Part shown: positions 1 to 31,423 of the stretch, one piece after another | Numbering within the stretch: position 1 is the stretch's first letter | Layout: every line of letters begins with the position of its first letter | From: a virus | Taxonomy: Duplodnaviria; Heunggongvirae; Uroviricota; Caudoviricetes | IMG/VR virus record: IMGVR_UViG_3300033074_000450 | Coordinates: 64,001 to 118,948 of that record | Direction: 5' to 3' (one strand) | Length of the DNA: 54,948 nt | Position numbers and translations under genes: made by a program | Notes under the pieces: model-generated | Seen by the model: only the letters and a program-made list of their open reading frames with translations | Told to the model about the DNA's origin: nothing | Databases searched by the model: none

Positions 1-1
1 C

Positions 2-709
2 TTCGGTATGCCAATGGACATGTACCTTGGTACTGATGTTCACTCACGATTCAGCAGAGCTTTCTACGCTAAACAGCGTGTAATGTCTGGTTCTACAATC
101 AATGCTGGTCAAAAAGTTAAAGAATTTAACGGTTCTTTGGACTTCCGATTCAAGCCTAGCTTGTTCAACCGTCCTCGTAAAGCTCCTTTGGCTTCTACGA
201 TTTCAGCTCAAGCTGCTCCTACTGTAGCTAACTTGACTAGCCCTGCTGATGCTGCTTCTGAGTTTGCATCTGCTGACGCTGGTACTTACAGCTACCGAAT
301 CAGTGCAGTTTACTCTGACGGTGAGACTCTTGCCTCTTCACAAATTTCTGGAGCTGTTGCTGCTGGAGATAAAGTGATGATTGAGATTACTTACTCAGGT
401 GCTCCTCTGTACTTCAACGTATTCAGGGCTCCAGTAGGTACTACTTCAGGTCATGAGTTCATTGGTCGTATCGCTCCTGCTGGTTCAGGCGTTGCAGCTA
501 ATGTGGACTTCAACAAAATGCTCCCAGGTTCAGCTCGTGCTTACCTGTTGATGCATGACCCAGACGTATTGGTTTGGAAACAACTCGGTTCTATGATTAA
601 GTATGACCTTGCAGTTACAGACACTTCTTATAAGTGGCTCCAACTGTTGTACGGTACTCCACTTATCATGGCTCCTCGTAAAAACGTAATCTTGAAAAAT
701 CTTATCTAA
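2..709 (+). CDS. Major capsid protein, C-terminal part (5'-truncated by the window edge), SPO1/Twort-like
   Basis: Frame is open from base 2. C-terminus MIKYDLAVTDTSYKWLQLLYGTPLIMAPRKNVILKNL resembles the Herelleviridae MCP end; internal beta-rich insertion (TYSYRISAV...FNVFR); strong terminator follows. Confidence 0.8.
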   Translation, partial: FGMPMDMYLGTDVHSRFSRAFYAKQRVMSGSTINAGQKVKEFNGSLDFRFKPSLFNRPRKAPLASTISAQAAPTVANLTSPADAASEFASADAGTYSYRISAVYSDGETLASSQISGAVAAGDKVMIEITYSGAPLYFNVFRAPVGTTSGHEFIGRIAPAGSGVAANVDFNKMLPGSARAYLLMHDPDVLVWKQLGSMIKYDLAVTDTSYKWLQLLYGTPLIMAPRKNVILKNLI

Positions 710-13681: not shown

Positions 13682-14161
13682 ATGAGTAGCGGTTTTATTC
13701 CTGATAGAGATTCCAGCGGTAATATTATTCAGCAGCAGAGTCCCTTTTCTGCCAAAGTAATCAAAGACGGAAAGCTTTTTAGAAGACTTCACGGGTCAAC
13801 TTTTACACTCAATGCTTCTGGGGATACTGTTCACGAAATTACGGTCCCGTATCTAAAATGCAAAATAAATAAATTAGAACTTCTTTGGTTTCCAGAGGGA
13901 GTTACAGTTGATTTTGAAGTATTAGATACAGAGGATTGTGCTATTCAAATAGCTATGGGTGTTCCCGAACAGGATAGAGTTCCGAATGCTATGCTGAATC
14001 AATTTTCTTTTGGAGCAGGTATTAGAACTAATTATCATGAAGACACCTCAGAATATGATGCTGATTTGATTCAAGACATGAAAATAAGAATCACGCTTCA
14101 TAATCCTACGATTGTTACCAAAACAGTTTGTATCAATTCAGTATTTCATGAGATTAAGTAA
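13682..14161 (+). CDS. Hypothetical (virion-associated) protein
   Basis: Tightly packed in the late operon. Confidence 0.55.
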   Translation: MSSGFIPDRDSSGNIIQQQSPFSAKVIKDGKLFRRLHGSTFTLNASGDTVHEITVPYLKCKINKLELLWFPEGVTVDFEVLDTEDCAIQIAMGVPEQDRVPNAMLNQFSFGAGIRTNYHEDTSEYDADLIQDMKIRITLHNPTIVTKTVCINSVFHEIK

Positions 14162-14670
14162 TGAAAATATCCTACCTATTTTCTAGAAATGAAAAAATAG
14201 GTTCCAAGTTAATAGCTGGAGCAAGCGGTTTATTGGTTAAGGATTTGGAAAAGGTCCCATCTCATGTGGCTATTCTCTTGGAATTCGAGGGAGTATCCGA
14301 GAGTTTTGTAATAGAATCGGTTCTTGAGGCTGGAGTAAGAATCATACCATTTTCAGTCTGGCTTGAGAAAAACGAACTCTGCTATAGAATCTCTTGTGGA
14401 AAAGAGCGTACTCTAGATGAGATTTTTAAAGTAGTAAACTCTATCTGGGGTAAAAAATATGACTGGAGAGGCATCCTCTTTTTTAGTCTCTGTTTCATAA
14501 AACACCTGCTCTTTAAGACCCCTTTTCCAAAAGAAAACGCTTGGCAACGAGATGATTACTACTTTTGTAGCGAAGCTGCTGGTAAGATAAGTGGTTATGA
14601 AAAAACAGGTATGGCTACCCCTGCTAAAATGTGTTCCGACTTTCTCAAAATGAGCAGCTCTGAATTGTAA
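14161..14670 (+). CDS. Permuted papain-like NlpC/P60 enzyme (YiiX/YebB family)
   Basis: PSHVAI (His) precedes KYDW..I and YFCSEA (Cys), the permuted order. Confidence 0.75.
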   Translation: MKISYLFSRNEKIGSKLIAGASGLLVKDLEKVPSHVAILLEFEGVSESFVIESVLEAGVRIIPFSVWLEKNELCYRISCGKERTLDEIFKVVNSIWGKKYDWRGILFFSLCFIKHLLFKTPFPKENAWQRDDYYFCSEAAGKISGYEKTGMATPAKMCSDFLKMSSSEL

Positions 14671-16476: not shown

Positions 16477-19400
16477 ATGGATAAATATACAAAAGCGTTA
16501 GACATTCTTAAAAGTGTAGGAGAAGGAAGTCGAGGAGGCCATGTGATTGGTCATACTCGCTCTGGACAACCTATCTATGATTCAGCTAATCACGAAACTC
16601 ATCAGCAGTTTAAAGCTCAAGACCATAAAGATGCTATGAATCATCATTATGATATTTGGTCTAAAACACAAGAAAAAATCAACTCCATCAGACAACAAAA
16701 TCCTAATTGGAACCCTCCCAAGGAAATACATGATTTTCTAAAACATCATTATACTCAAATGCAGATGCATCAAAGTGTCATGGGTAGAAAAATGGATAGG
16801 GAAGCAGCTCAAGCTAAAAACCTTAAAAAATCTGACGAAATCACTCCTTTCTATTCAGCGGTAGTTGTAGTTGATGCCAAAAAGAAGAATTTCCTTTTAG
16901 GTAAACGGAAGAATGATGGGCTTTGGACATCTCCTGCTGGAGGAGCCAAAGTTGGAGAACTTCCCAAGAAAACGGCTATTCGTGAAGCTTTTGAAGAGGC
17001 TGGATTTGTTCTAGAAGAAAGTCAACTGCAAGAACTCCCTATGGGATACGCAGATAATTATAAGCCAGTGCATTGCTATGTGGCAATCTTATCCCCAGAG
17101 CAAATGAAGAAAATCTCCACAATAAATGACCCTGATGAAGAAGTCAAAGAATGGAAATGGCTTCCTATTGATGAGAAGATGCCAAATACTGACGAGAATC
17201 GTGCTGCCACTCTCTTGAACGCTAAGATGCATCTGGCAGGAATTGTAATGAAATCCTACCATAATCTAGATGATATGGAAGGCATGACTTCTATCAATAC
17301 TCATGAATTTAAAGAAGAGAATGAAGAGAGTCATCCAATTAAAGAAAGTATCGAAAGACTCATGGAAGGCTATGAATCTGGAGATGAGCCTCGAAGACTT
17401 ATGCTTGACGGGGAGCATACTCTACACTTAGTCCGAGTCGATGAGGGTATTTTTTCTGGTTTCGTTAAAAAGAAATCAGAAGATGGTATGGAAGAGACCG
17501 CTGTTACTTTGGACAAGATGCCTATTCCTAGCATCGTACAATATTTAAAAGCTAAAGAGATTCTTAAAGACGCTCCTAAACAGGTTGAGCTTAAACAAGA
17601 CGATTCTGCTCTAAGAGAAGTAATCGAGCGTTTAGCTGGTATGACTGTTTATGGAGACGTAAATATCACTATCAAAAAAGCCAAGGCTCTACCAATCGGA
17701 ACAATCCGTCAATGGGGAGTTTACAAGTACGTTAAACACGCAGATGGCTGGGTAGTTGTGGGAGGAGAGCATCATGGTAAGCTTATGGGTAATTTTAAGT
17801 CTGAGCCTAGTCACGCTGATTTTGCTAGACATCATGAGGGTTCGACTCCTAAACAAGATGAGCCTGAAACAAAGCCAGAAGCTCCAAAGGTGGATGAGGG
17901 GACTTCCTCAAAAGAAAAGCCTAAAGCAGAAGCTAAACCAAAGGCTGAGAGTCCTAAAGAAGAGTCTAAGCCTAAAAGCCCTGAAGAAGAAATTAAACAA
18001 GCTAAAGAGCTTGGGAAGAAAGCTTTTGAAGAAGGTAAAGGACCTGCTCCCTCACAAAGTTCGGAGCTAATGAAACTTTTTAAAGAGAGAACTGACCAAT
18101 CTCATGAACATGGATTAGCTCTTATGGATGCTTATGCTAAAGAATGGCATAGGGCTAATCTAGCTGCTCCTGTTCCAGAACCAGAAGCCAAGCCCAAAGA
18201 AGAGCCTAAGAAGAAGGATGAGAAGCCAGTACAAGAACCTGGAGCACCTGAAGCAGAGACCGAAGATGATGTTGATGACCAACCCGAAGTAGATGCTAAA
18301 TTTGGTCAAGTAGATAATCCTAGAGAAGAAGCTGAAGCTGAACAGGCAGAGCTTGAATCTGAAGGTGAGTATGCTAATGCTCGTAAATCAAAGATTTCAA
18401 ATATAGGAGAAGACGTAGAGGGTTCGGCTCGACATAAAGCTATGGACTGGAAAGGTCTTGCACAAGCTGAGAAAGATGGTAATGCAGAAGCTTTTATTAA
18501 ACGTGACCAATTATTGAAGATGGAACCAACCAAATTCGATGAGATGGTAACTCCTCAGAATTATATGGTCGCTCTTCAAATGCAATCTGCTTTGGAGCGT
18601 TTTCCTCCAGCTCCTAAACACTCTTGGTTAACTGGAGGCTGGGACTCTAAACCAGACGAAGAACTTCGCTATGCTGAAGTAATGACTCCTGCTGGAAGTA
18701 CTAGAAAAATACATCCATCTGAATTTGAACGTCTTGAGAGAGAAGGAAATCTTCCTGGAGAAGTCGTTAAAAAGGTAACTGTTGGAGATATCAAAAAACA
18801 AATCCGAAGTGATTATCTTGATGCCTTCAATAAGGTTAAAGCTGCTGCCACAGAAATCGTTAAGACCAAAGGTACAGCAGATATCGTGGAAAACATGAAG
18901 GCTCTTCAAACTGAGGTTCAGAAAATCATAAAAGAACGCAGAGAAAAAGACCGCTATGACGAGATGGCTAACAACATGATTAACTATCTCAATAAGACTG
19001 TTTCTCCATCACTACGCAAACGTAATAATACTGTAATGAATGACTTGAATGAGTTTGCTGAGATGGCAGCAAAATATCATCAAACCGATGCTGCTGGACT
19101 TTTAGGCAATAAAGAAGTAGCTGAACAAGCAAAGCAAGTAATTAAAGGAAAACCAGCATCCAAGATTTTTGGAGTTGAAAAAGAAGGTAAGAAACGCTTC
19201 ACAGCAGCAGACCTTTATGTGGACCATGCAGACCGTCAAGGACCTGATTCTGGTTTAAATACGGTTACAGAACAAGCTGATTTCTTAAGCAAAAAAGCTA
19301 AAATGAGAGCTGTTCAATGGGGTAACTCTGTTACGGATGAAGAGCGTGAACATCATTTAAAACATGCTGCCAACGCTTTTAAAGACCTTACTGACATTCT

Positions 19401-19998
19401 AGGACTCCCAGAAGAAATGGGTTCATTCAATGGACGCTTGGCTCTTGCAATCGGAGCTAGGGGTAAAGGTACAGCCTTAGCACACTATGAGCCAGATAGT
19501 AAAACAATCAACCTCACTCGTAAAAAAGGAGTTGGTTCTCTTGCTCACGAATGGGGACACATGCTAGATAACGTGTTAGGAGAAATCCACACTGGTTCTG
19601 GCAGAAATTATGTTTCCGAAGGCTCCGCTTATGGAAACAAAGATATCCCAGTTTATAAAGAAATGAAGGAGTTTCAGTATTCTGAAACAATGTCCCAGTT
19701 CCGAGATAAGGTAAGAGATGCTATTCGTGAAGAGCAAAAGAAGGGCAATTCTGTAGATTCTGATTACTGGATGTCCCGAAAAGAAGTTTGGGCTCGTTGT
19801 TTTGAAAAGTATGTTTCCCATAAGCTCGAAAAGTCTGGCAGAAAGAACACTTACCTATCTGGAGTTAAGGACCATGCTTTTTGGCCTAACGACAAAGAGA
19901 TTGAAGCTATGGCTCCATATTTTGATAAAATTATAGAAGCTGCTAAATCGAATGGTGACATCAAGAAGGCTTTAGACCTTCTAGGAATAACCCTTTAA
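16477..19998 (+). CDS. Large polyvalent protein: Nudix hydrolase plus C-terminal LPD1-like zincin domain
   Basis: Perfect Nudix box GGAKVGELPKKTAIREAFEEAGF (~16939-17007); VQWGNS...LALAIGARG...AHYEP...SLAHEWGHMLD...EVWARCFE (LPD1-like). Confidence 0.85.
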   Translation: MDKYTKALDILKSVGEGSRGGHVIGHTRSGQPIYDSANHETHQQFKAQDHKDAMNHHYDIWSKTQEKINSIRQQNPNWNPPKEIHDFLKHHYTQMQMHQSVMGRKMDREAAQAKNLKKSDEITPFYSAVVVVDAKKKNFLLGKRKNDGLWTSPAGGAKVGELPKKTAIREAFEEAGFVLEESQLQELPMGYADNYKPVHCYVAILSPEQMKKISTINDPDEEVKEWKWLPIDEKMPNTDENRAATLLNAKMHLAGIVMKSYHNLDDMEGMTSINTHEFKEENEESHPIKESIERLMEGYESGDEPRRLMLDGEHTLHLVRVDEGIFSGFVKKKSEDGMEETAVTLDKMPIPSIVQYLKAKEILKDAPKQVELKQDDSALREVIERLAGMTVYGDVNITIKKAKALPIGTIRQWGVYKYVKHADGWVVVGGEHHGKLMGNFKSEPSHADFARHHEGSTPKQDEPETKPEAPKVDEGTSSKEKPKAEAKPKAESPKEESKPKSPEEEIKQAKELGKKAFEEGKGPAPSQSSELMKLFKERTDQSHEHGLALMDAYAKEWHRANLAAPVPEPEAKPKEEPKKKDEKPVQEPGAPEAETEDDVDDQPEVDAKFGQVDNPREEAEAEQAELESEGEYANARKSKISNIGEDVEGSARHKAMDWKGLAQAEKDGNAEAFIKRDQLLKMEPTKFDEMVTPQNYMVALQMQSALERFPPAPKHSWLTGGWDSKPDEELRYAEVMTPAGSTRKIHPSEFERLEREGNLPGEVVKKVTVGDIKKQIRSDYLDAFNKVKAAATEIVKTKGTADIVENMKALQTEVQKIIKERREKDRYDEMANNMINYLNKTVSPSLRKRNNTVMNDLNEFAEMAAKYHQTDAAGLLGNKEVAEQAKQVIKGKPASKIFGVEKEGKKRFTAADLYVDHADRQGPDSGLNTVTEQADFLSKKAKMRAVQWGNSVTDEEREHHLKHAANAFKDLTDILGLPEEMGSFNGRLALAIGARGKGTALAHYEPDSKTINLTRKKGVGSLAHEWGHMLDNVLGEIHTGSGRNYVSEGSAYGNKDIPVYKEMKEFQYSETMSQFRDKVRDAIREEQKKGNSVDSDYWMSRKEVWARCFEKYVSHKLEKSGRKNTYLSGVKDHAFWPNDKEIEAMAPYFDKIIEAAKSNGDIKKALDLLGITL

Positions 19999-20007
19999 GG
20001 AACTAAC

Positions 20008-20856
20008 ATGAAAAAATTACAATTACTGGAAGAAATGGCAAAAAGTACTCAAGAGTTCAATCTAGCCATCAAGCTTCAAAAATCAGAAGAGTTCCAAAAG
20101 GCTCAAGGTCTTCCCGTAGGAAGCGTTAGATTGTGGCATGGTCAGAAATTCATTAAACAAGGTGATGGACACTGGGTCCCACTTCCTTCTGGTCAACAGG
20201 GACAAGGGCAGCAAAGTCAACCCCAGCAACAACCAGCTCCTCAACAAGAAGCTAAACCACAAGAGCAACAGGCACAAAAACAGGAAGCGAAAAGTGATGA
20301 GCTTGAAAAACAACCTCAAGAAAAATCTATTGAATCTGAACCTTTAGGCCATCTTAAGCCTAAAGAGGGGTTCGGAGGTCATGTAGGATTACATTCAAAA
20401 GACCTTGATGAGAGTTTGAAGAATGGTAAGTATTCCCTTATTTCTGCTGGACGTAATCCAAATAATGCAGGAGATAGGGCTCTTACAGATGACCAGATTA
20501 AAGAGCGTTATAAGCGTTTAGAGCAAGACTTGAAGGACCAGGGATACAAGTATTCTAAAGTCAAGGGTCATTACGGTGGAGAAGAAGATTCCTTTATGGT
20601 CCATCACGCTAAACCAGAACACATGAACGAGCTTGGGATGAAATATAACCAGGATTCAGTCATTCATAGCGACCAAGGCAAACATAAGATGCATTTTACT
20701 ACAGGTGACAATTCAGGGATGCATCATAAAGGTGAGGGTTTCCAAGAGGTCCCAGACGCTAAAGATTACTACAGTGTAATAAATACAACTGATGGGCAGC
20801 AAAAGAAGTTTAGTTTGAACTTTGATTTCGGCAAACACCATAAGGCCGATGAGTAA
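20008..20856 (+). CDS. SAM lyase (T3 SAMase-like) domain fused to a leader module
   Basis: LISAGR...KGHYGGEEDSF...KYNQDSVI...GFQEVP parallels T3 SAMase VSAFR...GCYRE...EEKT...WEQDCVL...SFQEVP (recalled from memory). Confidence 0.7.
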   Translation: MKKLQLLEEMAKSTQEFNLAIKLQKSEEFQKAQGLPVGSVRLWHGQKFIKQGDGHWVPLPSGQQGQGQQSQPQQQPAPQQEAKPQEQQAQKQEAKSDELEKQPQEKSIESEPLGHLKPKEGFGGHVGLHSKDLDESLKNGKYSLISAGRNPNNAGDRALTDDQIKERYKRLEQDLKDQGYKYSKVKGHYGGEEDSFMVHHAKPEHMNELGMKYNQDSVIHSDQGKHKMHFTTGDNSGMHHKGEGFQEVPDAKDYYSVINTTDGQQKKFSLNFDFGKHHKADE

Positions 20857-20899: not shown

Positions 20900-22147
20900 A
20901 TGTCTAAAACAAAAGAACAGATTGATGTAGAAATTACAAACTTAGCTGAACAGATGGTTAAGTCTGTAACTGATTCTAAACAACTTCTTTTCGATACCAT
21001 CATGAATCTTGGTCCTGAGAACCTTAAGAAGGCCGTTGCCTCTCTTTCTGATTCTGAGAAGGAAGTCTTGAAATCATGTGTGGCAGACTTGCAAAAAGCT
21101 AAAGAGGTTTCTGCTGAAATCACTCCTAAGAAGACTGAAACTAAAGCTGCTGAAATGAAAACTGAGTCTCAGACTGGTTCTGATGATGAAGATGAAAAGA
21201 AGCTTATGGATGAGAAGAACGCAGAACATCCTCATCAAGGTGGACCTAAAGACAAGCCCGAAGGTTGGGAAGGTCAAGTAATTAAAGCCAAAAAAGAAGA
21301 CGAAGAGCCTGAAGTTGAAATGCCAGCTAAAGAAGCTGTAAAAGAGCACAAGCGTCTAGTTAATGTTTTGGAGTCTGATTCTAAAAAAGATGACAAAGAA
21401 GAAGCTAAAAAACAAAAGAAAGAGCTTAAAGAATATCAATCAGAAATGAAAAAAGCTGATGATAAAGCTGTTGATGCTTTGATTCAGATTGAGGAAGCAG
21501 AACACAATAAAGATATTAACGGTGACGGTAAAATTGCCGAGAAACTTGAAAAGGAAAAGAAAATGAAAAAGTCATTAGAAGAAATCGTTGAGTTGGCTAA
21601 GTCACTCAATATGTCTAAAGAGGAAGTCATTAAGACGATTAAAGATTCTAATGATGACCTTGAACTTGTTAAGGGCAAAATGAAAGAAAAGTTTGCCGAA
21701 CAAGGTATGAAGCTTGCTGAACCCAAAAAAGAAGACGAGGGTTCTCCCGAAGATAAGAAAGAAGATAAAAAGGAAAAGAAGATGGAGAAATCTGTCAACT
21801 GGAACTTTAAGTCCTCTATCGCTGCCAATAGTTTGGGTCGTAATACTCACTGGGATGTGGATTCATACATCGAGAAGTCTGAAGCTGAGAAGCAAGAGAT
21901 TATCAAAAAAGGTGGATATTTCGGAGAAACTCAAGATGAGACTCTTCAAAAGTCTGAGTCTAAAAAAGTTGACATTAACGACCTAATCGAAAAAGGTCAA
22001 GATTATTCTACTGAAGAAATCAAGCGTATTGAAGGTATCCGTGACCACAAGATTGAAGGTAAGGTTGTTAAATCTTTCCACGATGAGGATATCGCTGCTG
22101 CTCTTGGCATGACTAAGGAAGAATATAAAAAGTTAATGGGAGAGTAA
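20900..22147 (+). CDS. Highly charged internal head / scaffold-like protein
   Basis: K/E/D-rich; more than 10 hydrophobic-x-K-[SAG] motifs; DINGDGKI loop. Confidence 0.6.
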   Translation: MSKTKEQIDVEITNLAEQMVKSVTDSKQLLFDTIMNLGPENLKKAVASLSDSEKEVLKSCVADLQKAKEVSAEITPKKTETKAAEMKTESQTGSDDEDEKKLMDEKNAEHPHQGGPKDKPEGWEGQVIKAKKEDEEPEVEMPAKEAVKEHKRLVNVLESDSKKDDKEEAKKQKKELKEYQSEMKKADDKAVDALIQIEEAEHNKDINGDGKIAEKLEKEKKMKKSLEEIVELAKSLNMSKEEVIKTIKDSNDDLELVKGKMKEKFAEQGMKLAEPKKEDEGSPEDKKEDKKEKKMEKSVNWNFKSSIAANSLGRNTHWDVDSYIEKSEAEKQEIIKKGGYFGETQDETLQKSESKKVDINDLIEKGQDYSTEEIKRIEGIRDHKIEGKVVKSFHDEDIAAALGMTKEEYKKLMGE

Positions 22148-22151
22148 TCCC

Positions 22152-22955
22152 ATGTCAAAACCCCAAGGCTGGAATCAAAAGCCTCCAGTGCAGTTAGCTG
22201 CTAAACCTACTGGGGGAAGGGTCGATATAGACCCTGCAAAATTTGAACAACTCATTCAAGAGAAGGGTGTTCGAGTTAAAGTCTATAGGACTGTTTTTTG
22301 TCCAAACGTAAAATCTATTGACGGTGGAGAGCACAACATTGATTGTGACCTCTGTAATGGTTCTGGTTTTTTAGATACCAGACCAATTTGTACCCTTGCA
22401 TTCATTCAAAATCAAGCTCTAGAAAAACTTCCCTTCGTAGAAGGTATGGTTGATGGTAACTCCGTAGCGGCTACTTTTCCTATGGGAATCGAGCTTCAGT
22501 ACTTTACTCTTGTGGAACTTGAAGACTTTACTGAAATCTATTTTCAACGTGTCAAGCGTCAAGAGGGTGATATAGATGTTCTCAAATACAAGGCTCATAG
22601 AGTTAATCTTTGCATAGACCAATATGGAAAAGAGTATTTCCAAGACAATGATTTTTGTATTGACCCCAACGGATGTATTAAATGGAACCCGAATAAGGGA
22701 CCTAATCCTGGAGATATTTACTCAATTCACTATGAAGCTTCTGTTCAATTCAGGGCCGTAAGAGCCATGCATAATAACCGCTTCACTCAGTACCTCACCA
22801 AAAAAGAGGGAGGGGGAGCAGTTCATGTTAAACTTCAAGAGCAATGGGTTCTTCAAAAAGAGTACTTAGTTAAACGAAAAGACCTAGATGGTAATGAGAT
22901 TCTCCCGAACCTCATTCATGAAAAAACTGACCCAGACGCTCCAGAAGAAGATTAA
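22152..22955 (+). CDS. Neck / head-closure protein with Zn-binding motif
   Basis: FEQLIQEKG..VKVYRTVFCP...CDLCNGSG matches the Herelleviridae-type neck protein pattern. Confidence 0.7.
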   Translation: MSKPQGWNQKPPVQLAAKPTGGRVDIDPAKFEQLIQEKGVRVKVYRTVFCPNVKSIDGGEHNIDCDLCNGSGFLDTRPICTLAFIQNQALEKLPFVEGMVDGNSVAATFPMGIELQYFTLVELEDFTEIYFQRVKRQEGDIDVLKYKAHRVNLCIDQYGKEYFQDNDFCIDPNGCIKWNPNKGPNPGDIYSIHYEASVQFRAVRAMHNNRFTQYLTKKEGGGAVHVKLQEQWVLQKEYLVKRKDLDGNEILPNLIHEKTDPDAPEED

Positions 22956-29566: not shown

Positions 29567-31423
29567 ATGGGAATCAAAAAATCTTTCGCTGGAGCATCAA
29601 TCAGAAAACCTGGAGCATATTCTAGGTCTAAAGTTGATAATTCGAGTGGAGCACCTCTTGGAACGAATGACACATTATTTTTAATCGGAGAAGCCGATTC
29701 TGGTAGAGCTGGTTCTGTTGAAGGAATCGTAGAATTTACTGCTGAACAAATTGACCGCTTAATCGAAAAGTTCACTTCTGGTCCTGTTGTTGACTGTGCT
29801 CTTGCAGCTACCCGTCCATCCCCAGATTCTACTATCGGTGGAGCTGGTCGTATTTTAGTGTATATCACTAATGCGTTGGCTCAAGCGTCTAGAACTGTAA
29901 ACGAAGCTACCAATACCAACCCTCTTTACTCTGTAAAAGACCGTAAAGGTGGAGTTTCTGGTAATGACCTTTCAATCACTATTGCCAACGGTACTGTTCC
30001 TGCTCGTCAGAAACTTATCACTATCAATCGTTTGAATGATACCGCTGAAGTATTGGGTGAGAATCCTGGTACTGCTGTAATCTCGATTGATTACACTGGA
30101 GATGCTACAACTGCTTCTGCTGTGATTTCTGGAGCTTCTAAAGCTGCCAAAACTCTTGCAATTACCCTTGCTGGAGACCAAACAGACGGTTCATTGAACC
30201 AAAGCATTATGCTTGCAAACTATACTTTCAAACAACTTGTGGACTTCATCAATGCTCAAGTAGGTTATGCTGCTGTTCTTTTGGATTCTTCTAAAGCTGC
30301 TTTGAAAGCTAATGAGCTTGACTCAATCGGTGCTACTAGCATTCTTTCAGTTACTAGCTTGTATCGTCTTCAAGAAGAAATTCTTGAACTCATCAATGAA
30401 TCTGACCGTGTAGAGGCTTCTTTGGCCGCTACTCCTGTTGTAGGTCTGCCTGTCAACTTGACTAACTCCTTCCTTTCGGGTGGAGCTAAAGGTGCATCTA
30501 CTAACTCTAGCTTCTCAACTGGACTCTCTAAGTCACTTGCACGAGACTACTCTGTAGCTCTTCCTTGTATCTCTAGAGACGCTTCTGCTGATATCGCTGA
30601 CGGCATGACTGATGCAGGTTCTACTTATACTATCGCTGCTGTTCAAGCCGCTCTGGAAACTCACCTTGTTCTTCGTGGTTCTGTTAAGAATCGTAAAGAA
30701 GCTCAAGGCCACACTGGTTTCCGTGATGCTCAGAAAGCTGACTGTTTTGCTCAAGCTGCTAACATCGGTTCTGAGTTGGTTCAGGTTTCAATCCAGGACG
30801 TTTTAGTTCTTGATGTGAACGGTGACTTGGCTTGGAAACATCCTCATGTTCACGCTGCCCTTTGTGCAGGTATCCGATTGGGTACTGAAGTCGGTGAGCC
30901 TTTGACTCACAAGTTCCTAAACGTAAACGGAGTTGGTCACGTTGTAGACCCTCTGACTGGTTTGGAAACTGGAGACTTTAACGAGAGTCTGGATGTTGAT
31001 GATGCAATCGACGCTGGAGTTACCTTCTCTGAAAAAGCTCAGGGTGGACACCGAATCGTTGTGGATAACACAACTTATGGAGTTGACCAAAGCTTCGTAT
31101 TCAACAGGGGTTCTGTTGTAGAAGCTGCTCAGTTTACTGCTAAGACTCTTCGTGAGACTGCTGAATTGGTTTTCGTTGGTAAGAAAGTTTCTAACGGAGC
31201 TGCTTCTTCCATCAAGTCGGTTCTTCGCAATAAACTTGAAGAGTTGAACAGAGCTAACATCATCACCGCTTCTGACGATGCTCCTCAAGGTTTCGTAGAA
31301 GAGACTTTCGTAGTTACCGTAACTGGAAATACTGCTGAAGTTCAAGTTGAAGTTAAACCTGTTCAAGGATTGGACTTTGTATTCATTACTTTCACTTTGG
31401 GAGATATTAAGCAATCAGCTTAA
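29567..31423 (+). CDS. Contractile tail sheath protein
   Basis: IRKPGAYSRS N-terminus; LIGEADSG; IVVDNTTY; VEVKPVQGLDFVFITF C-terminus. Confidence 0.92.
   Translation: MGIKKSFAGASIRKPGAYSRSKVDNSSGAPLGTNDTLFLIGEADSGRAGSVEGIVEFTAEQIDRLIEKFTSGPVVDCALAATRPSPDSTIGGAGRILVYITNALAQASRTVNEATNTNPLYSVKDRKGGVSGNDLSITIANGTVPARQKLITINRLNDTAEVLGENPGTAVISIDYTGDATTASAVISGASKAAKTLAITLAGDQTDGSLNQSIMLANYTFKQLVDFINAQVGYAAVLLDSSKAALKANELDSIGATSILSVTSLYRLQEEILELINESDRVEASLAATPVVGLPVNLTNSFLSGGAKGASTNSSFSTGLSKSLARDYSVALPCISRDASADIADGMTDAGSTYTIAAVQAALETHLVLRGSVKNRKEAQGHTGFRDAQKADCFAQAANIGSELVQVSIQDVLVLDVNGDLAWKHPHVHAALCAGIRLGTEVGEPLTHKFLNVNGVGHVVDPLTGLETGDFNESLDVDDAIDAGVTFSEKAQGGHRIVVDNTTYGVDQSFVFNRGSVVEAAQFTAKTLRETAELVFVGKKVSNGAASSIKSVLRNKLEELNRANIITASDDAPQGFVEETFVVTVTGNTAEVQVEVKPVQGLDFVFITFTLGDIKQSA

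Follow-up and report, generated by a model that had tools for sequence, protein, structure and literature searches.

The window analysed here, a stretch of 54,948 nucleotides from a 118,948-bp phage genome, carries two adjacent cargo genes located between head genes and tail genes (Table 1). Pfam searches bore out the domain context given in an earlier note on this DNA, with NUDIX and LPD1 domains in the large protein and an S-AdoMet lyase domain in the small one. The capsid protein encoded at the start of the window matched SPO1 Gp6.1 (E 5.9e-46) and the Kayvirus major capsid protein (E 4.5e-14) in a phmmer search of the PDB.

Table 1. Features of the cargo locus and flanking head genes (window coordinates; an arrow marks the putative scissile bond)
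Feature	Position	Strand	Evidence
Major capsid protein gene, 3' part; gene start 700 nt before window	1..709	+	phmmer vs PDB
Polyvalent cargo protein, 1173 aa: N-terminal leader, NUDIX, module 1, linkers, LPD1-type zincin (HEWGH)	16477..19998	+	ORF translation, Pfam, orthologues P0008-P0015
NUDIX hydrolase domain, residues 128-244	16858..17208	+	Pfam E 2.4e-15
Copy 1 junction motif I399-K400-K401↓A402, consensus site of putative scissile bond	17671..17682	+	Family position statistics; kept in 8/8 orthologues
Module copy 1, basic three-stranded beta meander, LPIGTIRQWGVYKYVKHADGWVVVG	17689..17763	+	BLASTP, six-frame search, HMM, AF2
Subfamily-specific conserved extension GEHHGKLMGNFKSEPSHADFARHH	17764..17835	+	Invariant columns in orthologues
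P/E/K-rich low-complexity linker behind copy 1	17836..17988	+	Sequence
Zincin-like metallopeptidase region, HEWGH ~residues 1024-1028, LPD1 1094-1158	19225..19950	+	Pfam and PHROG matches
Gene split: TAA stop, AAGGA Shine-Dalgarno-like site, ATG; both ORFs in one frame	19996..20010	+	Sequence; relatives fused here
SAM-lyase cargo protein, 282 aa: leader, module 2, Q-rich linker, S-AdoMet lyase domain	20008..20856	+	ORF translation, Pfam
Leader with three hydrophobic-x-K-[S/A] motifs (MAK↓S, LQK↓S, FQK↓A); K31↓A32 = consensus junction	20008..20103	+	Sequence, motif table
Module copy 2, LPVGSVRLWHGQKFIKQGDGHWVPL	20110..20184	+	BLASTP, six-frame search, HMM, AF2
Q/P/E/K-rich low-complexity linker behind copy 2	20185..20367	+	Sequence
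S-adenosylmethionine lyase domain (PF23780 / DUF3293), residues 158-258	20479..20781	+	Pfam E 4.2e-10
415-aa protein, 12 hydrophobic-x-K-[A/G/S] motifs (3.6 per 100 aa)	20900..22147	+	Motif density table

The earlier note had singled out one segment in each cargo protein as copies of a shared module. Both lie where it placed them: 17683-17760 encodes KALPIGTIRQWGVYKYVKHADGWVVV (residues 403-428 of the 1173-aa ORF 16477-19998) and 20098-20185 encodes KAQGLPVGSVRLWHGQKFIKQGDGHWVPL (residues 31-59 of the 282-aa ORF 20008-20856). Their proposed kinship was borne out as well. By comparing the two ~48-aa module segments with BLASTP, we found 13 identities over 32 positions (E 2e-8). When the module-1 segment was searched against the six frames of the whole genome, module 2 was the sole other match (E 1.4e-5). 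An HMM trained on 240 modules of other proteins alone, without the window copies, recovered copies 1 and 2 among 1,742 ORF fragments with E values of 1.1e-13 and 4.4e-11, and none of the other fragments fell below E 1. The module count of this 119-kb genome is two, both in the window cargo genes. The pair was absent from the matches of full-length BLASTP, hence the module match is local and short. That absence is also what could be said for a chance or low-complexity resemblance of the two copies, to which we give a negligible probability; it was refuted by profile searches, in which hundreds of independent family members show the same pattern. Sequence comparison thus confirms that the segment shared by both cargo proteins is a real homologous module.

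The surroundings of the two copies agree only in part with what had been proposed. For copy 2, both the cleavage site (F29-Q30-K31↓A32) and the order "linker then enzyme" are accurate. For copy 1, the consensus junction I399-K400-K401↓A402 lies two residues upstream of the first-proposed K403↓A404, just outside the start first given for the module, and "linker then enzyme" is only roughly true because a conserved 25-aa extension (GGEHHGKLMGNFKS...ARHH), a P/E/K-rich stretch, a small conserved domain and then ~480 further residues come before the zincin. This extension is shared by 8 of 251 family modules.

An HMM search of the kind that the earlier note proposed, run over 1.84 billion proteins, returned 625 representative clusters at E<=0.001 (59 at E<=1e-10), with many effector domains downstream and virion or late gene contexts. 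Pfam, with its LPD models, contains nothing that matches the module. The family consensus is hydrophobic-x-K-[A/G/S]-[K/R]-x-hydrophobic-P-[V/I]-G-T-[V/I]-[R/H]-x-W-x-G-x-x-Y-x-K-x-x-x-G-x-W-x-P-V. Modules have a net charge of +4.3, and the 50 aa behind a module are poor in hydrophobic residues family-wide (0.21 vs 0.27 for whole proteins). The 146 listed proteins with a scored copy carry one (66), two (60), three (15) or four (5) copies at a median spacing of 308 aa. Each copy heads an effector-size segment, and the last one starts within 60 aa of the C-terminus in 9 of these proteins only. Examples are module / SNF2-C / module / ART / module / RadC (P0017), module / TopoIB / module / ART (P0018), module / SAM lyase / module / Kyano_Gp96 (P0026) and module / SAM lyase / module / RelA_SpoT (L003 ORF). 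Effectors found downstream of the module are SAM lyase, RelA/SpoT, Zeta kinase, NUDIX, ART, TopoIB, RadC, ParB and InPase, and the repertoire of the family is that of polyvalent proteins (SAM lyase, Zeta toxin, RelA_SpoT, NUDIX, InPase, TopoIB, LPD1, ddrB-ParB, ART-PolyVal, PBECR1, MuF). With many distinct effector domains headed in hundreds of protein clusters, the suggestion that the module can be bolted onto different effectors holds.

The module precedes each effector, in fused polyproteins and separate genes alike. Since it is present before each enzyme domain, here as in the hundreds of phage proteins of the same family, the ~35-residue unit, comprising a probable head-protease site and a small basic three-stranded beta sheet, has the appearance of a "start of cargo unit" tag that can be reused. 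It is new to the domain databases searched and represents a widespread, hitherto undescribed "cargo-unit head".

The context also agrees with the assumption that cargo proteins are virion-associated, as module-bearing genes were found in virion or late gene neighbourhoods. The gene order phrog_1004, cargo gene, phrog_16819, tail sheath recurs in a Treponema MAG contig; no cultured phage carrying the module was found. The two window proteins are probably virion-delivered anti-defence proteins. The 415-aa protein encoded downstream of them, in which the family HMM detected no module, is a candidate scaffold-like or other processed head-internal protein.

In related phages, both window genes form one fused polyprotein of 1190-1331 aa (NUDIX, module, zincin, module, SAM lyase) in which both modules are kept, an identity of the two "cargo proteins" that was absent from the earlier note. 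By aligning these orthologues, we found positionally conserved motifs directly before and after NUDIX, upstream of both modules and, for others, inside the zincin region; the hydrophobic-x-K-S motifs flanking NUDIX lie at residues 116-119 and 257-260, and their columns are kept in 7-8 of the 8 orthologues. Compared to the near-identical relative P0008, the N-terminal 567 residues show 77% identity overall and are nearly identical around module 1. The zincin is a divergent cassette (23% identity to that of P0008), whose 5' breakpoint lies ~140 residues downstream of module 1 and whose 3' boundary falls just upstream of module 2's leader.

The upstream hydrophobic-x-K-[A/G/S] belongs to the unit, as it is present in 204 of 229 copies (position -7 hydrophobic, -5 K in 67%, -4 A/G/S in 71%) at a fixed spacing from junction Lys to meander. 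It is retained in 40 of 41 N-terminal copies although their leader is merely 5-21 aa long, and the junction therefore behaves as a linear motif rather than as a fold element. The motif is low in information, with ~3 defined positions, and could be conserved for structural reasons. Most ORFs contain at most one such motif per 100 aa, scaffold-like head ORFs 3-4. The N-terminus of the window capsid protein reads EELQK↓ALSIS, with LQK↓A at residues 28-31. In the Kayvirus Mcp, the junction is ...VVK↓SFQTGYG; the solved PDB chain 9row_B, 439 aa long (463 minus 24), begins at SFQ, which we infer from its length and alignment to be the natural mature end of this protein; the Listeria LP-125 Cps reads ...ALK↓SFTTGYG. 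In the capsid alignment, the Kayvirus mature N-terminus faces window residue 33, not 31, so that a 2-residue indel has to be assumed. The same hydrophobic-x-K↓[S/A] at the propeptide junction of homologous Herelleviridae capsid proteins makes plausible the earlier view of the K↓A site as a maturation cleavage site, and the match between the cargo junction and the propeptide junction of the capsid protein points to the head protease as the cutter. The polyprotein's own zincin would be an alternative one. The phage genome encodes two ClpP-like proteins, and its candidate HK97-type protease found no support from Pfam or the PDB.

The small beta-sheet module that had been postulated was recovered by AF2: each copy is predicted as a meander of three strands, with a core pLDDT of 81-90 (90 in copy 2). 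In copy 1, the strands span residues 410-413, 416-421 and 424-429 and the junction is unstructured; in copy 2, a helix is predicted for residues 25-34 (pLDDT ~67) with the junction at its end. The top Foldseek match of the model was a beta fragment of phiKZ gp184 (E 0.3, not significant), and further comparisons with gp184 were not significant either (VIA Z 3.0; HMM E 0.015-0.05 on its single sequence). The head-protease cleavage sites of gp184 were verified earlier, and in PDB 8Y6V its beta-rich residues 69-102 are docked under a hexamer at the inner capsid surface while the remainder is unresolved (PMC11297242). This non-significant resemblance to a capsid-bound fragment, an analogy rather than an established homology, is the only pointer, and a hint at most, to the role of the module.

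Taking these observations together, we favour, with moderate confidence, a maturation-protease junction followed by a basic beta cap with which each effector would begin once released and which might serve docking, DNA binding or ejection. Maturation cleavage of module-bearing cargo proteins, which we infer, is fairly well supported, and the role of the cap is speculative. The prohead would take in the polyprotein or a single-unit protein, and the head-maturation protease would cleave behind the junction Lys, in the same motif as at the end of the lineage's capsid propeptide. Each effector, in this phage the zincin unit and also the SAM lyase, would then be freed with a stabilising A/G/S N-terminus, followed by the compact, strongly basic beta cap and a flexible linker. 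The cap could serve a step common to all units, namely retention in the head (on DNA or the inner shell) and/or exit via the tail.

It is unlikely, in our opinion, that the polyprotein stays uncleaved and that the module is a small nucleic-acid-binding or interaction domain, repeated along its length, that tethers each enzyme, once injected, to the phage's DNA or to a host structure common to all, with K-[A/G/S] as part of the fold. Such a tether would suit the strongly basic charge, the conserved W/Y/K/R residues, like those of small DNA-binding beta sheets, and the helical junction of copy 2. However, the motif is kept with N-terminal leaders too short for a likely helix, it is identical to that of the capsid propeptide junction and enriched in scaffold-like proteins, and effectors with unrelated substrates (SAM, nucleotides, NAD, UNAG) would hardly share one host target. 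We regard as improbable that the LPD1-type zincin cuts the junction, in the head or after injection, with the meander as a positioning exosite. The window protein and its orthologues do contain a zincin, the literature already proposes that such peptidases process their own polypeptides (PMC5512222) and the Lys-meander spacing is fixed, but most sampled module proteins are without zincin (LPD1 in 3 of 74), many have a single effector, and the identity with the capsid junction favours the head protease.

The shuffling, fusion and splitting of effector cassettes around the module, and the zincin cassette that differs between near-identical phages up to module 2's leader, would also fit a module kept mainly as a recombination junction for cassette swaps between phages, akin to polymorphic-toxin pre-toxin motifs. 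We hold this to be very improbable given that conservation is seen at the protein level, with only 41% of residues in common between the two window copies, the 5' breakpoint lying away from module 1, and the predicted fold and basic surface, which suggest a function at the protein level.

Several known systems resemble the proposed maturation of module-bearing cargo. In T4, internal proteins (IPI-III, Alt) carry a short N-terminal capsid targeting sequence, portable to foreign proteins, that ends in a hydrophobic-x-charged site cut by the prohead protease gp21; the T4 head takes up small basic proteins as well as enzymes, which are injected. Cleavage there follows L/I-x-E↓ and not hydrophobic-x-K↓, the leader is removed, and T4 is not known to leave a conserved folded module on the mature protein or to encode its cargo as polyproteins in which a tag recurs. 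Inner-body and ejection proteins of phiKZ and SPN3US are processed by the head protease, as proposed here, but at S/A/G-x-E↓. Pre-toxin motifs of polymorphic toxins (VENN in CdiA, PxxxxDPxGL in Rhs) are also short conserved elements that bound variable C-terminal effector cassettes and are tied to processing or release. In these secreted bacterial toxins, there is one such element per protein, ahead of the single toxin domain at the end, whereas the module, of other sequence and fold, recurs ahead of each unit in a protein that is probably packaged by the phage. The hydrophobic-x-K↓[S/A] site itself is shared by Herelleviridae capsid proteins (VVK↓S, ALK↓S or LNK↓A among Kayvirus Mcp, Listeria A511/LP-125 Cps and SPO1 gp6.1; LQK↓A in the window phage), where cleavage takes off a 24-30-aa propeptide and, unlike at the cargo junction, no beta module follows; this cleavage is not known to have been linked to cargo proteins.

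The closest account deals with polyvalent proteins encoded by phages or by conjugative elements (Iyer, Burroughs, Anand, de Souza, Aravind 2017, J Bacteriol; PMC5512222), in whose main-text passages these proteins are multi-effector polypeptides from late or virion neighbourhoods, predicted to be injected with DNA and proposed to release their domains by proteolysis, with NUDIX, LPD1 zincin, RelA-SpoT, InPase, ART-PolyVal, ddrB-ParB, PBECR, RadC, SNF2 and MuF among them. The same passages describe no recurrent short module or junction before each effector, and they favour zincin autoprocessing, whereas the module junction found here matches the capsid propeptide site.

The earlier note had described a shared segment of about 27 residues in two cargo proteins of the window, a polyvalent protein and a S-adenosylmethionine (SAM) lyase protein, and translation placed both peptides exactly where they had been reported. 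Their similarity is real: aligned by BLASTP as segments of about 48 residues, the two copies had 13/32 identities (E = 2e-8), and a six-frame search of the whole genome with segment 1 returned segment 2 as the sole other match (E = 1.4e-5). Likewise, an HMM trained on 240 copies taken from unrelated proteins recovered the window copies at E = 1.1e-13 and 4.4e-11, with nothing in the rest of the genome below E = 1. Together, these searches exclude a chance resemblance. Full-length BLASTP did not pick up the pair, which shows only that the match is short. The HMM detected neither a third copy in the genome nor a degenerate one, whether in the GSRGGHVIGHTRSG region at the N-terminus or in the neighbouring protein of 415 aa.

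By collecting extra copies from IMG/VR loci, we obtained a 9-sequence profile that was then searched against 1.84 billion representative proteins, yielding 625 clusters at E≤1e-3, of which 59 reach E≤1e-10. We located 251 copies in the 148 best proteins, from 1 to 4 in each. Counted from an invariant Pro, the upstream consensus is hydrophobic at -7 (about 70%), K at -5 (67%), A/G/S at -4 (71%), K/R at -3 (64%) and hydrophobic at -1, and from the Pro onwards it reads P-[V/I]-G-T-[V/I]-[R/H]-x-W-x-G-x-x-Y-x-K-x-x-x-G-x-W-x-P-V. Net charge averages +4.3 over the aligned part, and the 50 residues behind it contain few hydrophobics and many K, E and A. Pfam gave no match to the two window segments at E≤10, no domain match overlapping the module positions of 7 multi-module proteins, and only noise at E≤1 for 10 short canonical members (CBM_5_12, E = 0.021; ChaB, E = 0.0057 in one protein; both below cut-off). 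No Pfam family covers the module, LPD1-40, DUF6550, CBM_5_12 and ChaB included.

Copies are separated by a median of 308 residues, and the last one begins within 60 residues of the C-terminus in just 9 of 146 proteins. Tabulating the downstream domains of the profile-search members bore out the proposal that the segment can be joined to different effectors. In the mapped multi-module proteins one copy stands ahead of each domain, and a Pfam tally of 74 further members gave SAM lyase (10), Zeta toxin, RelA_SpoT and NUDIX (6 each), InPase (4), TopoIB, LPD1 and DUF5661 (3 each), ddrB-ParB (2), and ART-PolyVal, mCpol, PBECR1, HD, MuF and poly(A) polymerase (one each). This effector repertoire is the one defined for phage-type polyvalent proteins, which are predicted to be packaged and injected (Iyer et al. 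2017, PMC5512222); in the parts of that article that were searched, a description of the module was not found. We consider it very probable that the module is a modular "unit head" of virion-associated polyvalent effectors.

Coordinates of the genes, proteins and sequence features discussed (window, nucleotides of the window; genome, nucleotides of the whole record; L-numbers, loci from other phages or genome contigs; P0017, P0018, P0026 and the L003 ORF, other module-bearing proteins, in residues)
Feature	Position	Content
Polyvalent ORF, 1173 aa	window 16477-19998	NUDIX 128-244; LPD1-type zincin (HEWGH; LPD1 1094-1158)
SAM-lyase ORF, 282 aa	window 20008-20856	S-adenosylmethionine lyase domain 158-258
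Large-ORF N-terminal leader	window 16477-16590	MDKYTKALDILK↓SVGEGSRGGHVIGHTRSG
Extension behind module 1	window 17764-17835	GGEHHGKLMGxFK...ARHH
Zincin cassette	window 18178-19998	residues ~568-1173
Boundary between the two ORFs	window 19996-20010	TAA, AAGGA, ATG
Capsid protein, 469 aa	genome 63300-64709	starts 700 nt upstream of the window, ends at window 709
Motif-dense ORF	window 20900-22147	
Motif-dense ORF, 302 aa	genome 61188-62096	
Motif-dense ORF	genome 62390-63196	
phrog_1004 virion protein	window 22152-22955	
Tail sheath	window 29567-31423	
169-aa ORF	window 14161-14670	
P0017	modules 7, 654, 1237, 1893	SNF2-C 500-598; ART-PolyVal from 908; RadC 1343-1433
P0018	modules 169, 471, 762, 1300	TopoIB 225-417; ART 573-744
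P0026	modules 10, 439, 689, 744	SAM lyase 297-400; Kyano_Gp96 482-556
L003 ORF	modules 148, 511	SAM lyase 330-419; RelA_SpoT 768-873
Leader-bearing loci	L013:2699-3745, L021:4191-5321, L004:5477-7540, L006:4624-6366, L024:3863-6826, L025:5650-6639, L027:5632-7185, L003:9203-12310, L005:6060-7937	

The record is an uncultured myovirus of 118,948 bp, of which the window is the 3' 55 kb, and it encodes a SPO1-like major capsid protein, a tail sheath, a baseplate and its own sigma factor. As expected of polyvalent proteins, which combine at least two disparate activities per polypeptide, NUDIX and LPD1 zincin lie in one window ORF, and the cargo genes adjoin late or virion genes (the capsid gene at the window start, phrog_1004 and the tail sheath). 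Orthologues from other metagenomes (P0008 and P0010-P0014) are single proteins of 1190-1331 aa in the order N-terminal leader, NUDIX, module 1, linkers, zincin, module 2, linker and SAM lyase. Their zincin has a HEIGH motif, with Pfam LPD1 in P0014 only, and these single-ORF relatives are 55-98% identical in the region compared. In the window, both ORFs share one frame, and only the stop codon, a Shine-Dalgarno-like site and the start codon lie between them. Compared with P0008, identity is 77% over the whole of the N-terminal 567 residues and nearly complete around module 1, against 23% for the zincin cassette. Judged from these alignments, the zincin of the window clade looks like a recent cassette replacement inside the polyvalent protein; since this replacement ends in TAA/AAGGA/ATG in frame, the SAM-lyase unit is now a separate gene that has retained leader and module.

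Some features of this region were observed besides. The leader of the large ORF is kept in 7 of 8 aligned orthologues (P0015 starts later); its junction motif at residue 12 is followed by a GSRGGH-IGHT-SGKPIY block without any Pfam match. The extension behind module 1 is present in all orthologues and in 8 of the 251 family copies (HADGW subtype), and its paired His might bind metal. Just upstream of the cargo genes, the 169-aa ORF has weak matches to phrog_1128 (ClpP/crotonase-like, E = 7e-13) and Pfam Peptidase_C92 (E = 1.6e-4, below cut-off), and could be a further peptidase-like gene.

A K↓A site (the arrow marking the putative cut) had been proposed in front of both copies. This holds for copy 2, at K31↓A32; for copy 1, the consensus site is K401↓A402 (window 17677-17682), two residues upstream of the proposed K403↓A404. 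The two junctions, I-K-K↓A and F-Q-K↓A, match the form of the putative head-protease junctions of Herelleviridae-type heads. Across the family, hydrophobic-x-K-[A/G/S] occurs at a fixed distance in 204 of 229 copies, and it is kept in 40 of 41 N-terminal copies, where just 5-21 residues stand ahead of it (for example MRLFIK↓A, MKLVFK↓A and MFLLK↓A). Each orthologue has 9-11 such motifs, 9 positions being kept in at least 5 of 8 aligned sequences: in the N-terminal leader, directly before and after NUDIX, upstream of both modules and inside the zincin region. The motif has little information content; its conservation suggests a functional linear motif and not a mere neighbour of the module. Single-effector proteins of other phages have a common homologous N-terminal leader of about 110 residues with several such motifs. 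Across IMG/VR cargo proteins with one or two effectors, the homologous leader measures about 110-150 residues (LDxxIxKG ... hydrophobic-x-K-[AGS]-L-[ST]-[FH]-[DN]-P ... YYNPY ... W); it stands ahead of junction and module whichever effector follows and may be a propeptide or targeting domain.

We then compared the junctions with the capsid protein of the same phage, which matches SPO1 Gp6.1 (E = 5.9e-46) and Kayvirus major capsid proteins (E = 4.5e-14). Its residues 26-35 read EELQK↓ALSIS, and corresponding stretches are MTIEKNLSDVQQKYADQFQEDVVK↓SFQTGYG in the Mcp of Kayvirus A3R, QEDALK↓SFTTGYG in the annotated precursor of Listeria phage LP-125 Cps and DALNK↓ALEAG in the SPO1 capsid protein, giving the set LQK↓A, VVK↓S, ALK↓S and LNK↓A. 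By alignment, the window-phage junction appears to correspond to VVK↓S in Kayvirus Mcp and to ALK↓S in Listeria phage Cps. PDB chain 9row_B has 439 aa (463 minus 24) and begins with SFQ, that is at S25 of Kayvirus Mcp, right behind Lys; from chain length and alignment, this start is presumably the natural mature N-terminus. Motif density, which is at most 1 per 100 aa in most ORFs, reaches 4.1 in a 268-aa and 3.0 in a 302-aa ORF, both of which adjoin the capsid gene, and 3.6 in the 415-aa ORF that follows the SAM-lyase gene. Scaffold-like proteins chopped during maturation would be expected to show such densities, and the three are candidate scaffold or processed head-internal proteins. Taken together, the features of the motif, its match to the capsid junctions and its density make it likely that hydrophobic-x-K↓[S/A/G] is a head-maturation protease site and that each module starts right after such a cut. 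The genome has two ClpP-like genes near the portal, and our literature search found no usable published cleavage consensus for T5, HK97 or Herelleviridae proteases. For an HK97-type prohead protease at genome 61188-62096, neither Pfam nor PDB sequence searches gave support.

Modelling agreed with the small beta-sheet that the earlier note had predicted: with small alignments, AlphaFold2 gave one three-stranded antiparallel meander for both copies. In copy 2 the strands are VRLW, QKFIKQG and HWVP, with a core pLDDT of 90, and a helix stands ahead of them (pLDDT about 67); in copy 1 they span 410-413, 416-421 and 424-429 (core pLDDT 81) and the junction is unstructured. In a Foldseek search of the PDB, rank 1 was a 34-residue beta fragment of phiKZ gp184 (residues 69-102), a weak match (E = 0.3, probability 0.94), weak also by VIA (Z 3.0, rmsd 2.8 over 34 residues), and the module HMM scored gp184 at E = 0.015-0.05 on that single sequence, which is not significant. 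In 8Y6V (PMC11297242), this fragment is seen beneath a hexamer, docked to the inner face of the capsid. Profile searches of the phiKZ and P-HM2 genomes gave no match, so that gp184 and a BFVD match to the P-HM2 endonuclease stay structural leads only, and we keep the capsid-docked fragment as an analogy, not as evidence. A sequence search of the PDB with the module profile returned chance-level matches only, such as transthyretin, and a wide VIA fold search peaked at Z 4.3 (collagen XV/XVIII trimerisation domain), with no convincing fold relative. By eye, residues 69-102 of gp184 (L031:28470-29162), PGDTYHVNGVDWIYQEDGGWVTM, resemble G-x-x-[RH]-x-W ... DG-W-V, with scores that are not significant.

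Our preferred explanation of these observations is a pathway in which the cargo protein would be taken into the prohead and cut at the junctions by the maturation protease, so that each effector would begin with a small residue, followed by a basic beta cap and a flexible linker. Since the cap is common to effectors whose substrates are unrelated, it would most likely serve shared logistics, either holding the unit on DNA or the inner shell or guiding it out via the tail, or both; a shared host target seems less likely, and any one specific role is doubtful. Rival explanations, each less probable, differ on the cut and on its agent. The module may be an uncleaved DNA-binding or interaction repeat; cleavage at the cargo-protein junction itself we put at roughly even odds from sequence. 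Or the junction may be cut by the protein's own zincin, which the window protein does have, but most module members lack one. If the module were instead a recombination junction, breakpoints should fall at the modules; on comparing the window protein with P0008, the 5' breakpoint lies about 140 residues downstream of module 1, which does not favour this explanation.

Proteins that a phage injects together with its DNA are active ahead of all phage gene expression and therefore form the first layer of counter-defence. To our knowledge, cargo choice, cutting and delivery are known in detail only for T4 and partly for phiKZ-like phages. The T4-type capsid targeting sequence is an N-terminal leader of about 10 aa that ends in L/I-x-E and is cut by a gp21-type protease. 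In contrast, the module junction has Lys, not Glu, and the head module of the window is SPO1-like and not T4-like; the likeness is functional only. In the window phage and its relatives, at least 625 protein clusters contain one short unit, which stands in front of SAM lyases, alarmone synthetases, Zeta-type kinases, ADP-ribosyltransferases, nucleases and other effectors, and its junction motif matches the presumed capsid maturation site of the same phage lineage. If cutting by the head protease is the correct reading, this would provide a sequence rule to recognise virion-delivered effectors in metagenomes, many of them with unknown domains after the tag, would explain fusion and fission of polyvalent proteins, and would make the packaging of chosen proteins into the heads of laboratory phage strains open to test. 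More tentatively, and with the odds against it, junction and cap might act, in a large group of SPO1-like-headed myoviruses, as a general and portable signal for packaging and delivery: any protein behind it would be loaded into the prohead, freed by the head protease at hydrophobic-x-K↓[A/G/S], held on DNA or the inner shell by the cap, and injected ahead of or with the genome. Such a signal would explain how interchangeable, pre-made anti-defence payloads evolve and would offer a rule by which foreign proteins could be designed for loading into phage heads. Even if cleavage were disproved, the module would be a large undescribed domain family specific to polyvalent proteins.

Finally, we looked for the module in other genomes. 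The SAM-lyase protein as query found no related loci, module 2 alone retrieved near-identical proteins only, and megablast of both window genes against cultured phages gave no match. Neither module segment, nor a canonical 96-aa member, matched any of 50,697 phage genomes by tblastn, which is weak evidence of absence given short queries with the low-complexity filter on. A 2224-aa multi-module protein had one match only among cultured phages, via its ART region. A degenerate exact DNA pattern of the core motif hit 20 stretches in 185,579 species genomes, all 20 being true modules by HMM. These GTDB contigs (L034-L053) come from Treponema, Treponemataceae or Spirochaetaceae MAGs in 16 cases and from Bacillota in the remainder, which points to spirochaete phages or prophages as a reservoir of the module. 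Several of them hold two module-bearing genes. On one Treponema contig, a phrog_1004 virion protein, a module-bearing cargo gene, phrog_16819, an ORF without PHROG match and a tail sheath follow one another, and the window has these families in equal relative order. Elsewhere on this contig, a second module-bearing gene has a DarB-like methylase-helicase polyvalent protein on one side and a "minor head protein" on the other.
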